Shown: positions 12,891 through 59,242 of the stretch, in pieces
Numbering within the stretch: the stretch's first letter is position 1
How the letters are laid out: every line of letters starts with the position of its first letter
Assembly (NCBI RefSeq): GCF_021028975.2
Contig: NC_059437.1
Location: 32,798,001 to 32,862,000, forward strand
Source: Sphaerodactylus townsendi
Taxonomy: Eukaryota
DNA length: 64,000 bases
Direction of reading: 5' to 3'
Program-made: the position numbers and the translations under genes
The notes under the pieces: model-generated
Told to the model about the DNA's origin: nothing
The model's database searches: none
What the model saw: only the letters and a program-made list of their open reading frames with translations

Positions 12891-13160
12891 CTAGCAGTCC
12901 CAGGGCACCCGGCGCAGGCTCTCACGCAGGCAGCGGAGCTGCTCCTCGCCTAGCTTGATTTTGTCATCCAGCTGCCGCTGCTGGATGGCGAGCGCTGATT
13001 TCATGCGCACAAAATGCTGGTAGTCCTGCAGCTGCTCGCTGGGCAGGCAGCGCGACACGCTGGCAAAGACCACGCTCTCCCGCTGAGCAACGTGCTCCTG
13101 CAGCTCTTTGGCATCCTCTAGCTGGGCTGTCAGCTGACGCTTCTTCTCCAGCAGGGCCAG
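12891..13160 (-). CDS. SHROOM4: SHROOM4 coding exon 11 (ASD2 C-terminus, stop)
   Basis: AAG| acceptor; LALLEKKRQLTAQLEDAKELQEHV...DYQHFVRMKSAL...IKLGEEQLRCLRESL; TAG at 12891-12893; 270 nt. Confidence 0.95.
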   Translation of the reverse strand: MALLEKKRQLTAQLEDAKELQEHVAQRESVVFASVSRCLPSEQLQDYQHFVRMKSALAIQQRQLDDKIKLGEEQLRCLRESLRRVPWDC

Positions 13161-13612
13161 CTTGTAGGGAGGGGAAGAGAAACAGGAGGGGACAGGTAAG
13201 TGCCTGCATGGAAGTGCAAGTAGTCAGCCAAAAGTAAGGGGCTGCCTGAGGAGGTACCAAAGAACAGGATTTTAGGGAGAGCCCAAAACTAGCCAACCCC
13301 CCCTAAAGCATCAGGCATTTCTGTTCACCCCTCTCCTATGAAACAATGGCAGATGGTTCCTGAACTCCTCTCCCCCTATTCAAAACAGCAGAGTCCTGAA
13401 ACCCTCCATGCATAATCTCAAAGATTATAGGTACATTTGCATAATTATTTGTTCTGATTTGGCTTGGAATTACAGGAGGCTGAGATAAAGAGGTAGTAGG
13501 AAAGAGACACCGGTTGGCTAACAGGATGCTCTTCCATTCAAGAGGACCAGCTGGTAGGTGTGTTTTGGTTTTACAAGCTGCCATAACTGCACCCTACCTG
13601 CCCATAGCATAC

Positions 13613-13885
13613 CTTTTCTTCCTCTGGAGCATCAGAGTCCAGGTTGCTAAGGGCATTCTCCACCCTGGCCAGTCTCCCGGAAAGCGAGAGAAACAGGTTG
13701 ACTACTTTGTCCAGGTCTCCGATGAAGAGGCGGAACTTCTCAAATTCGTGCTGCTTGCAGACCCCCTTGACGTGACTCTCCACTTCTTTGCCCAGGATTA
13801 CATTGGCATTGATGTCATCCTGCAAGCCCCGCTGGGCCTCCTGCAGCACCGCCAGCTTCCGGCTGATGCTTTCAATCAGCTGCAC
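13613..13885 (-). CDS. SHROOM4: SHROOM4 coding exon 10 (ASD2)
   Basis: CAG|...|[16 protein letters not shown]...[26 protein letters not shown]; 273 nt, phase 0/0. Confidence 0.96.
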
Positions 13886-13923
13886 CTGGGAAAGGGAGAG
13901 GCCACAATAGGATGCCGTTAGAA

Positions 13924-14068
13924 CATAGGTGTCCAAATCTGGCACTTCAGATGTTCATGGACTACAATTCTCACCAGCCCCTGCTGGCATGGCAATTGGC
14001 CATGCCAGCAGGGGCTGATGGGAATTGTAGTCCATGAACATCTGAAGCGCCAGAGTTCGACACCCCTG
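13924..14068. mobile_element. palindromic hAT (Charlie/Buster-type) MITE
   Basis: Near-perfect 145-bp hairpin; TSD CGTTAGAA/CATTAGAA. Confidence 0.85.
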
Positions 14069-15341
14069 CATTAGAAGCATGGTGGGGCAGCATTAAGGGA
14101 AAAGGAAGTTTCTGAACTTCTTTTAGCCACTGGCTACCAACCCACCAGAGTGGAAGTTCTGTAATTGCTTAGGATCTCTAATGACGTGTTCTCCATACCC
14201 TCCCTCTGAGAGACAAGTCCCAAAGTTTTCATGACACTGCAATGCATGATAATCAAGTGTTTTCAAACCAATCTGACTGTGCAGCACTGGCAGGCAGGCA
14301 AGCCCTTATTATGTCAGGTGATCTTGGGCTATTGTTTAATCAGATACATTTATATTGATGAAAATCTGAAGGAAAAAGGCAAGCTTAGGAGACACACAAG
14401 GCTATCCTTCAGCCTGAGATGGAATATCAAATCAGGCTTGGAGGCTGGAAACGATCGTGTAGCTATTAATATTTTAAAGACCAAAAACCAACACGTGGGA
14501 GGTGAAATTTAAGCAGGGGGAATTAACTCGTTCTGACTCTTGGTGAGCACCTCTGGGGGTCTTAAAATCTGCCCTACTCTCTTCTCAACTAAAAAACCCT
14601 TATTTTTGTAATGCACAAATTGCTTTAACACCAACCATCATCCTTTGGCTTCCTTCACTTACACACTCATACACAAGGTCAGCATGGGAAATGCTTTGGT
14701 CTTCAGAGTTAGCCAGACCCAGTAGGGACTCCCCAAATGGGACAGATGTGGGCATTTCACACCCAGCCGAGTCCCAAGCAGCAGAAGCAAAAATACATTA
14801 GCAACTTGAATGGGAGAAAAGGGGCCCCAGGAGGCTTTAATCCACAGGCTAACTCCAGCAAGATTTAAAGCAAAGTTTTCATGCCGGCATCCTCCCCACC
14901 CCTGCCCCCAAGGGGAGGACTCATACAAAAGTATGGAGGACAGCTGCAGAAAATGGGCACAGAAATCAACGCCCCAAAAGCACCCAGCTTTCATACACTG
15001 TCCAAAAAGAGTGCATTGCTAGCCCTCATGGCTGCAACAAGGCAGACTTCAAAGTGTGTGGGGCAAAGCTTGGATACATCATGCCAGAAACCTAGGGGAG
15101 AAGGGAGGAAAGTAGGACTTTCAGAGTCCTACAAGCTTTTTGCTTCTCCCCATGACTAGCATGAGGTCCTAGAGATTTTTGTAGCATGAGGTCCTAGAGA
15201 TGGGGCTACAGGTCAGCAAAGTTAGGGCCTGCCTCCTCCTCTGGACTCTACTGGGGGCTTCTTTCTCCAGATTTGCTGGGACTACAGGAGAGAATGATCT
15301 CTGACAGACAATTCGCTCTCCGGATGAGCAGGGTCTCTTAC

Positions 15342-15501
15342 CTTTTTTTGGGCCAGATCGTGGTCCGGCTCCTCCTCTTCTGCACTGGCTCCTGAAAGCT
15401 CTTTCATCTTGTTCAGCAACTCGGCCTTTCCTGATGACAGGCTGTAATAGGCTGAACAGGTGGTGCCTGCTGAGGTTGGAGAGGCAGGCTGAGCTGGATG
15501 C
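15342..15501 (-). CDS. SHROOM4: SHROOM4 coding exon 9 (start of ASD2)
   Basis: CAG|...|GTAAG; SAYYSLSSGKAELLNKMKE...DHDLAQKK; 160 nt, phase 2/0. Confidence 0.93.
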
Positions 15502-15804
15502 CTGCACCAAGAAAGAGCATGACAGAGACTAAATTCTGTGTGACCCCAAGGGGCCAGAAGACCCAAGTCTCAGCACAACTGGGAGCAAAAGGTTGGACAA
15601 AACCCTATCTTTCGGGGACACCTTCAGGGGAACCCTATGTCCACGTATTCAGCTATGAGGGAAGGTTGAGGCAGGGTCCCACAAGACTCAAAACAGTTCC
15701 ACAGGTAGGACAACTTTCTGCTTCCCCAGCAACCCCCACACTTTCAGTTTCCAAAAACATGGGTGCTTCTATCTGCAAGTCTCAGCTCACCAAGCAGTTC
15801 CTAC

Positions 15805-16078
15805 CTCTCAGGAAGTTCCTTGCCAGCCACCTGCGGTTTCCAGTCCTGCCTCTTCCACATCTCGCACTTGCCGGGGGAGAAGAGGTCGCTCATCACCTCG
15901 GCTGCTGTCACTGGCCCTAAGGATGGATTCAGCACACCTGCCAGAGAACGGTCCCTGCCTGCCACATCCCTCATCAGCTCTTCAGAGTTCAGGTGGAAGG
16001 GCGGTGCTGGACTTGCTGTGCCTGGATGACAGCCGTCTCCTCCAGCACCCGCTTGCATGGACTCGTAGTCTTTGGAGC
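15805..16078 (-). CDS. SHROOM4: SHROOM4 coding exon 8
   Basis: TAG|...|GTAGG; contains NSEELMRDVAGRDRSLAGVLNPS...MSDLF, a Shroom2/3-type pre-ASD2 motif; 274 nt, phase 1/2. Confidence 0.82.
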
Positions 16079-57482: not shown

Positions 57483-57563
57483 ATGGCTTGTGTGCTTTCC
57501 TCTGGAGCTCGGACAGCCCTAATGCTTGGGGTGCTTTTGCTCCTCTTCCTCAGTTCCCAGCAG
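57483..57563 (+). CDS. LEAP2-like prepropeptide exon 1 (signal peptide)
   Basis: gacATGG Kozak; MACVLSSGARTALMLGVLLLLFLSSQQ; perfect donor CAG|GTAAGT; phase 0. Confidence 0.85.
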
Positions 57564-58655
57564 GTAAGTCATGTCATGTCAGAGGGGTGAATTGGGAGTG
57601 GGACAAGAAGGGGGCAAAGCCAGAGTAGTAGTAGCCTTTGGCAAGACAGGCTGCACTTTGGGAGCTTCCTCTGCACCCTCTGCAGCTGCAACAACCAACC
57701 TGTGCAGAAATGGAAAGAGCCTGGCTCTGACCCCGTCCCTCTTGACCTGCTGCTCAGCTCCTTCTGTGAAGCAAATAGTTTGGCCCCCATTATTGTGATT
57801 TGTATGGGAGAAGAAGGATGCTGTTCTGAGGATTCCTGTCAGATAAGGAGGATTTATTCCCAGGGCCAGATCTTAATTTGCTGATTGAGGCAGCTTCCAC
57901 ACGGTGAGGGGTTCCAGGACTTTGTTGCTACAAATGAAGTGGCATTTGCACTGGCAATGAAGTGTCTACATGAGAATTTTGTGCATGCTTTTCTCTGTTG
58001 GGCTTGCCATTTCCCCTGTATTTCCTCCCACTGCACCACTGGAAGTCTTTGGAAGGTTTTAAAAACTATTGCTATTAAGACATAGCACAGTGCCTTTATA
58101 AAAGTCCATTGGTGTAACCCACTAGTAACTAGTTCCTCAAAAAGGGCTAGAGATTTACCTTTAAAAGAGAGAAAGAGAGCTAAGAATTCAGCGGAGCCTT
58201 CTTGATTGTGGCAAAAGATTATAACGTTATTGTGCCCTAGTGCAAGAACAGTAACTCCCAACACCCTCTGGAGGAAGGGGAGAAAGGGTAGCCATTGGAA
58301 CTGAGGCAAGGAAAATGATGCCAATATGTGTAGATCTTTCACCTTCCTGTCCAGGTGGCTTTCTTACACATTTGGACAGTGTTCTTTCTGCAAAGACTAA
58401 ACCAAATGAGGTTTGAGAAGAAATATATTGAGCACAGGGAATGCCCAGAGAGGGGATGGTTAGAGAATGCCATTGTGTGGACGCTCCCCCCACCCCTTCC
58501 CCAATCCTGTGACTTAATTAAACAGTTGCTTATTTTAATTTCTAAAAAAAAGGTATAGATTCTTTCTTGGGGTCTTACTGGAGCTCAGTCCCAGGATCAA
58601 TTTAAATAACAGGCCTAAGTTCAGGAGTATGGGAAATAATCACAAAGTGCTGTGG

Positions 58656-58656
<1 letters not shown>

Positions 58657-58720
<64 letters not shown>

Positions 58721-58733
58721 TGAATGAATGAAT
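58657..58733. repeat. compound (TG)n(AG)n(AATG)n microsatellite
   Basis: Directly visible in intron 1 of the LEAP2-like gene. Confidence 0.95.
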
Positions 58734-58814
58734 CGGGGTGGGGGTTAATAGCAAGCTGTTGAGGCACAGTTCATACCAAGAAGTTGTCACCAAGTCCATC
58801 CCTCTCTTCTGCAG

Positions 58815-59014
58815 GTGCTGGCCACGCATGCCAGAGGCCAAGCCTTCACTGGGCTGAAGCTCCACATGGCATCTGCTTCCAAGATAGCTCCTTCCAGCTG
58901 GCGCCTGCTCTTGCGTCGAACCAAGCGTTCCACTCCCTTGTGGCGGACAATGGGCAGTAAACCCTTGGGCGCCTTCTGCAAGAGAGGGCTGGAGTGTAGT
59001 ACCTACACATGCCA
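58815..59014 (+). CDS. LEAP2-like exon 2 (propeptide, RRTKR site, mature peptide from 58929)
   Basis: Polypyrimidine tract + CAG|; VLATHARG...LLLRRTKR/STPLWRTMGSKPLGAFCKRGLECSTYTC; CA|GTGAGT; 200 nt, phase 0/2. Confidence 0.92.
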
Positions 59015-59205
59015 GTGAGTATGAGGTGCCCACTTGCAGGGAGGAAAAAAAAGGGCTCGACACTGTCCAGGGCCACAGGAAAAGGATGGCAACATGGCAG
59101 CATCTTGGCCTTCAAGTACTGTGGCAGAGATCAAAAGAAGACTCAGGGAGGGAGGACGAGTGGCTACTCCCCTGCTCACATCTGTGTTGTCTGCCTCTTT
59201 CCTAG

Positions 59206-59242
59206 GAATGGGCACTGTGCAGACCCCCAGGTCAAATCCTGA
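59206..59242 (+). CDS. LEAP2-like exon 3 (fourth Cys, stop)
   Basis: TCTTTCCTAG|; (Q)NGHCADPQVKS-TGA; phase 2 matches exon 2. Confidence 0.9.

Follow-up and report, generated by a model that had tools for sequence, protein, structure and literature searches.

A LEAP2-like gene downstream of BMP15 in Sphaerodactylus townsendi, a probable ancient paralogue of human-type LEAP2

Results

An intact LEAP2-family gene in the window

The stretch of DNA analysed here (the window) comprises 64,000 nucleotides of the genome of the gecko Sphaerodactylus townsendi (assembly GCF_021028975.2, contig NC_059437.1, positions 32,798,001 to 32,862,000 of the forward strand). It carries SHROOM4 on the minus strand, arranged head to head with BMP15 on the plus strand, and, also on the plus strand, a gene of the LEAP2 family, termed LEAP2-like, which begins 6.3 kb past the BMP15 stop codon. 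LEAP2 is an antimicrobial peptide and a natural blocker of the ghrelin receptor (GHSR), and in this role it has drawn interest in connection with appetite and obesity. The order SHROOM4, BMP15, LEAP2-like had been proposed in a preliminary description of the window and was confirmed gene by gene with Pfam, PDB and splice-frame evidence. Three coding exons make up LEAP2-like:

57483..57563, plus strand: LEAP2-like exon 1, 27 codons, hydrophobic and signal-peptide-like, with the phase-0 donor CAG/GTAAGT
58815..59014, plus strand: LEAP2-like exon 2, propeptide, furin-type site RTKR, mature N-terminus STPLWR and three cysteines, with the phase-2 donor GTGAGT
59206..59242, plus strand: LEAP2-like exon 3, with the last of the four cysteines, the C-terminus and the stop codon that closes the frame at 105 amino acids

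Joined across GT-AG introns of phases 0 and 2, these exons (57483-59242) form a single open frame of 105 amino acids plus stop. The donor of exon 1 has the best consensus among the hydrophobic candidate exons; the signal peptide was judged by hydropathy alone. The nearest named protein is P0002, a 'LEAP2-like' entry of Paroedura picta, which all three exons match collinearly over the whole precursor (71% over 104 columns). Exon 1 corresponds to its residues 1-27, and exon 3 is identical to its end in 11 of 12 amino acids. Exon 2 alone scored 31.8 bits with the Pfam LEAP-2 family (PF07359; curated cut-off 27), and in the PDB it matched the structure of human LEAP2, 2L1Q, with an E-value of 0.005. 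A profile of relatives gave 61.5 bits at the LEAP2-like locus compared with 10.4 at the second-best position and top scores of 6.5-13.2 on 10 shuffled windows; thus, the window holds one LEAP2-like copy, which is not a chance match. The convertase site of the RXXR type (RTKR) lies ahead of a predicted mature peptide of 40 residues, with cysteines at positions 17, 23, 28 and 33, which is the LEAP2 spacing, and five K/R versus two D/E residues. The window carries an intact LEAP2-family gene.

The LEAP2 fold is a beta-hairpin with disulphides linking cysteines 1 to 3 and 2 to 4. A predicted model of the Paroedura orthologue had a predicted local distance difference test (pLDDT) score of 85-91 over residues 71-100. 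A fold search with this model placed 2L1Q first, albeit weakly (probability 0.89, E-value 0.4), and unrelated cysteine-rich peptides followed close behind. A TATA-like element, ATAAATAAA, is present at 57365-57373, about 115 bases 5' of the LEAP2-like ATG. The sequence AATAAA does not occur between the LEAP2-like stop codon and position 62767.

Two types of LEAP2 in the same species

Published work is cited here for those parts of each source that were accessible. Teleost LEAP2A and LEAP2B (zebrafish NP_001122249.1, trout LEAP2B NP_001117937.1, croaker LEAP-2) share with the window copy 17-18 of 28 core residues, the string TPLWR followed by [GNS][ST]KP-x-GA-[YFH]-C, the distances between the cysteines, and a three-part precursor with an RXXR site. 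The window copy differs in having Ser in place of the initial Met and in belonging to an amniote, a group for which a single LEAP2 has been described. Human or canonical tetrapod LEAP2 (2L1Q) resembles the window copy in its Pfam LEAP-2 domain, in a mature peptide of 40 residues with four cysteines and with Trp5 and Arg6 conserved, and in being encoded by three exons. However, the human precursor is 77 amino acids long as opposed to 105 in the window, has Phe4 instead of Leu4, and its gene neighbours GDF9-UQCRQ, while the window copy neighbours SHROOM4 and BMP15.

The canonical peptides are further marked by the signature WRG-x-SLRPIGA, which is present in all seven canonical sequences compared and is replaced by WRTMGSKPLGA in the window. 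The alternative type, recognised by the peptide pattern GSKP-x-GA-Y/F/H-C, is referred to below as BMP15-linked, after its position in the window. In its core the window peptide is identical at 15-19 of 28 positions to 25 non-squamate members of this type, compared with 12 of 27 for human LEAP2 and 13-14 of 28 for Anolis LEAP2 (both counted by eye). The margin is modest, given that the zebrafish and human cores agree at 14 of 28 positions, and the diagnostic columns therefore outweigh the identity totals. The neighbours of canonical LEAP2, namely SHROOM1, GDF9, UQCRQ and AFF4, were not encountered among the window ORFs scanned; the window has a PDZ-bearing SHROOM4 and BMP15.

The human-type signature is listed for Anolis, two alligators and two turtles in Table 7 of PMC4078517, and the toad LEAP2 peptide is likewise of the human type (PMC9921027). 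Several of these animals also own a BMP15-linked protein. Alligator sinensis has XP_014376113.1 beside the human-type XP_006023615.1, A. mississippiensis has XP_014465387.1 beside the human-type XP_006263463.1, and the painted turtle Chrysemys carries both types (human-type records from PMC4078517). Among amphibians, the toad represents the human type (PMC9921027) and three frog proteins the BMP15-linked type. Judged from these peptides, the two types had separated no later than in the common ancestor of amphibians and amniotes. The window copy is not lineage-specific and is probably an old paralogue of human-type LEAP2.

Distribution of the BMP15-linked type

A word-index search with LEAP2-like exon 2 gave no candidate; the relatives came from an index-free search with this exon, which returned 49 matches. 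Of these, 25 were looked up by name, together with five from a second search (best 120 of 218). The BMP15-linked type was found in the lizards Paroedura, Pogona and Elgaria, in many turtles, alligators and the gharial, in birds (emu, ostrich, tinamou, kiwi, crane, parrot), in three frogs, two newts, a caecilian and the coelacanth, and in sawshark, reedfish, sturgeon and more than 100 teleost entries, including zebrafish leap2 and trout LEAP2B. The 'LEAP2-like' entries of reptiles, birds, amphibians and coelacanth, such as XP_077164705.1, XP_014376113.1, XP_025963564.1 and XP_014342082.1, are direct orthologue candidates of the window gene. Proteins of this type carry the automatic names 'LEAP2', 'LEAP2-like', 'uncharacterized' or 'bmp15 isoform X2'. 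One turtle member, P0188 of Platysternon (TFJ97513.1), bears the erroneous name 'Dynein heavy chain 2, axonemal'. In a redundant set of 205 stored cores, chosen for their resemblance to the query, Lys11 occurs in 203 and Tyr, Phe or His at position 16 in 202.

No snake, chicken or mammal protein was among the named matches listed, and the same searches also missed known mammalian LEAP2. A search aimed at human-type LEAP2 yielded only seven bird proteins, all of the BMP15-linked type, and an ESM search with the turtle peptide returned LEAP2 clusters only, at 0.78. Several candidates were discarded: P0001 and P0003 are long repeat proteins whose similarity is confined to the propeptide, and were dropped as chance matches; P0174, an 819-amino-acid permease within a LEAP2 cluster, was set aside; and the sole metagenome locus, L001, lies in a prokaryote-like contig and matches in its cysteines by chance.

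In a tree of 23 precursors of the BMP15-linked type, the window copy groups with Paroedura and this pair then with Pogona and Elgaria (100/99). The squamates belong to a larger group of reptiles and birds (94/90) that excludes the amphibians, coelacanth, shark and teleosts. Many forks are weak, but as far as these precursors allow it to be read the tree has the pattern of one orthologous lineage that broadly follows the species tree. In the preliminary description the gene was considered to be retained in this lineage. An old, retained copy is borne out by these data; the limitation to one lineage is not, as the type is kept in most non-mammalian jawed vertebrate groups. It spans shark to birds, and neither confinement to one squamate clade nor nesting within squamate canonical LEAP2 was seen. 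A point absent from that description is that the window copy, as judged by the shared peptide pattern, is of the same type as teleost LEAP2A/B and likely their orthologue.

Gene order in the window and beyond

BMP15 consists of two exons encoding 418 amino acids, of which 124 with six cysteines belong to the mature part:

48263..48629, plus strand: BMP15 exon 1, signal and start of the prodomain, matching a Xenopus bmp15 model, with splice donor
50259..51148, plus strand: BMP15 exon 2, rest of the prodomain, RRAR site and mature TGF-beta domain (Pfam TGF_beta)

The TGF_beta match has an E-value of 1e-31, and along 73 amino acids exon 1 shares 49% identity with the N-terminus of an X. tropicalis 'bmp15' model (E-value 4e-15). 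The top-ranked cluster by ESM features bears the automatic name GDF9 and resolves the GDF9/BMP15 subfamily only; no GDF9/BMP15 chain was among the PDB matches. The name BMP15 was kept because of the Xenopus exon-1 match, the neighbouring SHROOM4, and mature-domain motifs of the BMP15 type.

The domain layout of SHROOM4 is a PDZ domain together with ASD2 and lacks ASD1. The features of the gene in the window are as follows:

12891..39876, minus strand: SHROOM4 coding span with PDZ and ASD2, candidate ATG at 39876, stop codon at 12891-12893
39706..39876, minus strand: SHROOM4 coding exon 1, first part of PDZ, within a CpG island, matching 2EDP
27206..27357, minus strand: SHROOM4 exon 2, second part of PDZ, bounded by AG...GT, from motif scan and sequence

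In a PDB search, exon 1 matched the SHROOM4 PDZ structure 2EDP with an E-value of 2e-13 (next match, 2e-4). Exon 2 was assigned to PDZ from its sequence and the PDZ motif. Four open reading frames (ORFs) match Pfam ASD2 (15804-16151, 15285-15569, 13574-13954 and 12894-13223), two of them above the Pfam cut-off. No ASD1 was detected in the 783- and 433-amino-acid central ORFs or in the other SHROOM-region ORFs scanned.

The statement in the preliminary description that no UQCRQ-like exon is recognisable between BMP15 and LEAP2-like was upheld: none of the 147 ORFs of at least 30 amino acids between BMP15 and the LEAP2-like ATG matches UcrQ, although a decayed remnant would escape an ORF scan. 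Nor was UcrQ found in 117 ORFs of at least 45 amino acids from the SHROOM4 start to BMP15 exon 2; these are 117 of the 131 ORFs listed there, the remainder overlapping known exons. The window ORFs scanned contain no AFF match, the window has no match to an exon of phosphorylase kinase alpha (PHKA), and selected flanking ORFs revealed no additional gene with Pfam (0 of 140).

Beyond the window, X. tropicalis XP_017952151.1 (P0020, 'bone morphogenetic protein 15 isoform X2') combines BMP15 exon 1 with a LEAP2 exon of the BMP15-linked type and holds no BMP15 exon 2 sequence. It is a model fused in error or else reflects genuine read-through transcription. Such a fusion requires the Xenopus LEAP2 exon to follow bmp15 in the same orientation, which is also the arrangement in the window. 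In sturgeon P0047, a PHKA exon is joined to a LEAP2 exon. Phka1, Hdac8 and Shroom4 adjoin turtle and chicken Bmp15, and neighbours of Bmp15 are Shroom4 in human and Hdac8 in zebrafish (PMC9928969); the accessible text of that paper does not mention LEAP. The order SHROOM1, GDF9, UQCRQ, LEAP2, to which, as found on human 5q31, the preliminary description had compared the window, is given for sheep chromosome 5, where the block reads SOWAHA, SHROOM1, GDF9, UQCRQ, LEAP2, AFF4 (PMC8327097).

At its left end (1-800) the window contains a strong CpG island (GC content 0.76, CpG observed/expected ratio up to 0.97) with long open frames that have no Pfam match; it is likely to be the promoter or first exon of some neighbouring gene. 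A small CpG-rich patch at the other end (63600-63900, ratio 1.07) could mark the start of the next gene, for which PHKA1 is a candidate from the published turtle and chicken synteny. Two repeat families were noted as well. An interspersed repeat of about 280 bases, resembling a short interspersed nuclear element (SINE), is present in five copies (3435-3720, 7993-8272, 23779-24052, 54908-55196 and 59901-60180), which are 74-80% identical to the last one. A partly palindromic repeat of about 130-150 bases occurs four times (36023-36168, 36801-36926, 40257-40388 and 61642-61791) with 81-87% identity, and its copies resemble a small non-autonomous DNA transposon.

Discussion

SHROOM1 and SHROOM4 are paralogues, as are GDF9 and BMP15. 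Paralogous neighbours are thus found on both blocks, with SHROOM4-BMP15-LEAP2-like in the window and SHROOM1-GDF9-UQCRQ-LEAP2 in sheep (PMC8327097). With LEAP2 beside each of two paralogous neighbours, duplication of a block is the best explanation, and it predates the bony-fish split because both GDF9 and BMP15 exist in teleosts (PMC9928969). LEAP2-like would then have arisen in the same ancient event that gave rise to SHROOM1/SHROOM4 and GDF9/BMP15, most likely an early vertebrate genome doubling as suggested by flanking families of four members, and the BMP15-linked gene would have been lost later in mammals. The two blocks mirror each other in order and not fully in orientation, as GDF9 presumably is oriented relative to its own LEAP2 opposite to BMP15 here. 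We have good confidence that the BMP15-linked gene is an ancient paralogue, as its sequence and neighbours suggest. The paralogon proposed in the preliminary description hence stands with regard to an old, non-squamate origin, for which the wide spread, the same-species pairs and the Xenopus linkage speak; retention limited to one lineage does not.

In its full form the model comprises two ancient jawed-vertebrate LEAP2 lineages. Fish LEAP2A/B would be orthologous to the BMP15-linked gene and not to human LEAP2; both genes would persist in amphibians, reptiles and many birds, whereas mammals would have only the GDF9-linked one. We favour this model as a whole by a narrow margin over its being wrong in some part. 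A segmental duplication of the SHROOM-GDF9/BMP15-LEAP2 block in the jawed-vertebrate stem would imply the same age and orthology and dispense with a genome doubling. It is compatible with there being only three gene pairs visible here, with the absence of a UQCRQ partner from the window ORFs, and with the presumed difference in GDF9 orientation. Yet, each of SHROOM1-4, SOWAHA-D, SEPT6/8/10/11 and AFF1-4 is a set of four on 5q31, 4q21 and X, as is usual after two doublings. The order SOWAHA-SHROOM1-GDF9-UQCRQ-LEAP2-AFF4 in sheep (PMC8327097) also speaks against a merely segmental event, which we regard as unlikely.

Alternatively, there could at first have been a single LEAP2, of the BMP15-linked type, from which a separate gene duplication in the lobe-fin or tetrapod stem later produced the human type linked to GDF9. 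Every fish and shark protein retrieved is indeed of the BMP15-linked type, and the human type was seen in tetrapods only. However, retrieval was biased to the former type, fish LEAP2C could be the GDF9-linked copy, and the new copy would have had to insert, by coincidence, next to GDF9, which is a paralogue of its former neighbour; we deem this history very unlikely. Hardly credible is a recent squamate duplicate or transposed copy of canonical LEAP2, or a decayed pseudogene, despite the long squamate branch, the loss of Met1 and the loss of the cleavage Arg in Paroedura. The three exons of the gene are bounded by consensus splice sites and join into an open frame that is matched by Paroedura at 71% over 104 columns, its peptide is nearer to those of frog, turtle and fish than to canonical LEAP2 of Anolis, and the linkage to BMP15 recurs in Xenopus. 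The preferred model thus remains that of two old lineages generated by duplication of a block.

Members of the LEAP2 family are made as secreted precursors and cleaved after RXXR. The LEAP2-like precursor would accordingly be secreted and cut after RTKR by a furin-type protease, and its product would be a cationic peptide of 40 residues with two disulphides. Fish peptides of the BMP15-linked type are antibacterial and expressed in liver and gut (PMC9986249), and two Leu4 peptides, zebrafish LEAP2 and croaker LEAP2A, have nanomolar IC50 values at GHSRs (bioRxiv 2022.09.21.508860). LEAP2-like would most likely act in the manner of fish LEAP2A, as an antimicrobial and immune peptide of liver and gut that is able to bind GHSR. 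The start MTPFWR, as in human LEAP2, is kept in the turtle, crocodilian, bird, amphibian and coelacanth copies. By analogy, it is reasonably likely that most non-mammalian tetrapods have a second GHSR antagonist. Because Ser1 and Leu4 replace the MTPFWR start, the gecko-type copy is predicted to bind GHSR more weakly than the turtle, crocodilian and bird copies and to have a mainly antimicrobial or immune role. Whether it has retained GHSR binding at all appears somewhat doubtful by the same comparison. To judge from their peptides, the squamate copies may be drifting in function.

Several findings weigh against the model of two lineages and the function derived from it. Synteny outside the window comes from two fused gene models, those of Xenopus and sturgeon, and the latter (P0047) lends weak support as it is flagged 'UNVERIFIED_CONTAM' and has an odd exon order. 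No synteny was seen for the copies of teleosts, shark, turtles, crocodilians and birds. Only in tetrapods were the two types observed side by side, the BMP15-linked type alone representing shark, sturgeon and coelacanth. The motif census and the trees do not include human-type LEAP2 (0 of 207 stored), and the census is biased to query-like matches. The mature-peptide tree is built on a short peptide (45 columns) and leaves 16 of 26 forks open; the squamate branch is long (1.11). With respect to function, the four squamate copies carry Ser or Ala in first position, where 197 of 205 cores have Met, and GHSR binding is almost absent in croaker LEAP2B, another peptide without Met1 (bioRxiv 2022.09.21.508860). 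Paroedura P0002 has His in place of Arg before the mature peptide (residues 61-66), so that its furin site is lost or shifted. An extra Ser occurs at the same site of the Elgaria precursor.

The LEAP2 literature describes a single gene in mammals, and one paper ascribes the additional fish copies to fish genome duplications. Fish LEAP2A, B and C have been placed apart from mammals (PMC11149183). Reviews cover only canonical LEAP2 in birds, reptiles and amphibians, and one of them states that there is no published work on reptilian LEAP2 and GHSR. Nothing on a second LEAP2 lineage is contained in the accessible parts of PMC12427373, PMC13296721 and bioRxiv 2023.06.03.543543. In the open literature, most subscription papers lying outside this scope, we found no paper that links LEAP2 to BMP15, GDF9 synteny or PHKA1 or that describes a second tetrapod lineage, and none that treats the 'LEAP2-like' entries of reptiles, birds, amphibians and coelacanth as one such lineage. 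A paper on LEAP2 evolution in sturgeon reportedly dates LEAP2 isoforms before the split of ray-finned and lobe-finned fishes; part of the age argument may thus already be in print.

The finding concerns the history of a gene family and not a new kind of system. A second old LEAP2 lineage in non-mammalian tetrapods changes which genes are to be compared across species. If the model of two lineages is true, comparisons of fish and human LEAP2 are comparisons of paralogues, GHSR antagonism is older than the duplication, and amphibians, reptiles and many birds own a second predicted antagonist of the ghrelin receptor. Natural variants of the N-terminus (Met, Ser or Ala at position 1; Phe or Leu at position 4) are on offer for receptor assays, and the BMP15-linked gene is an overlooked candidate hormone for the physiology of reptiles and birds.

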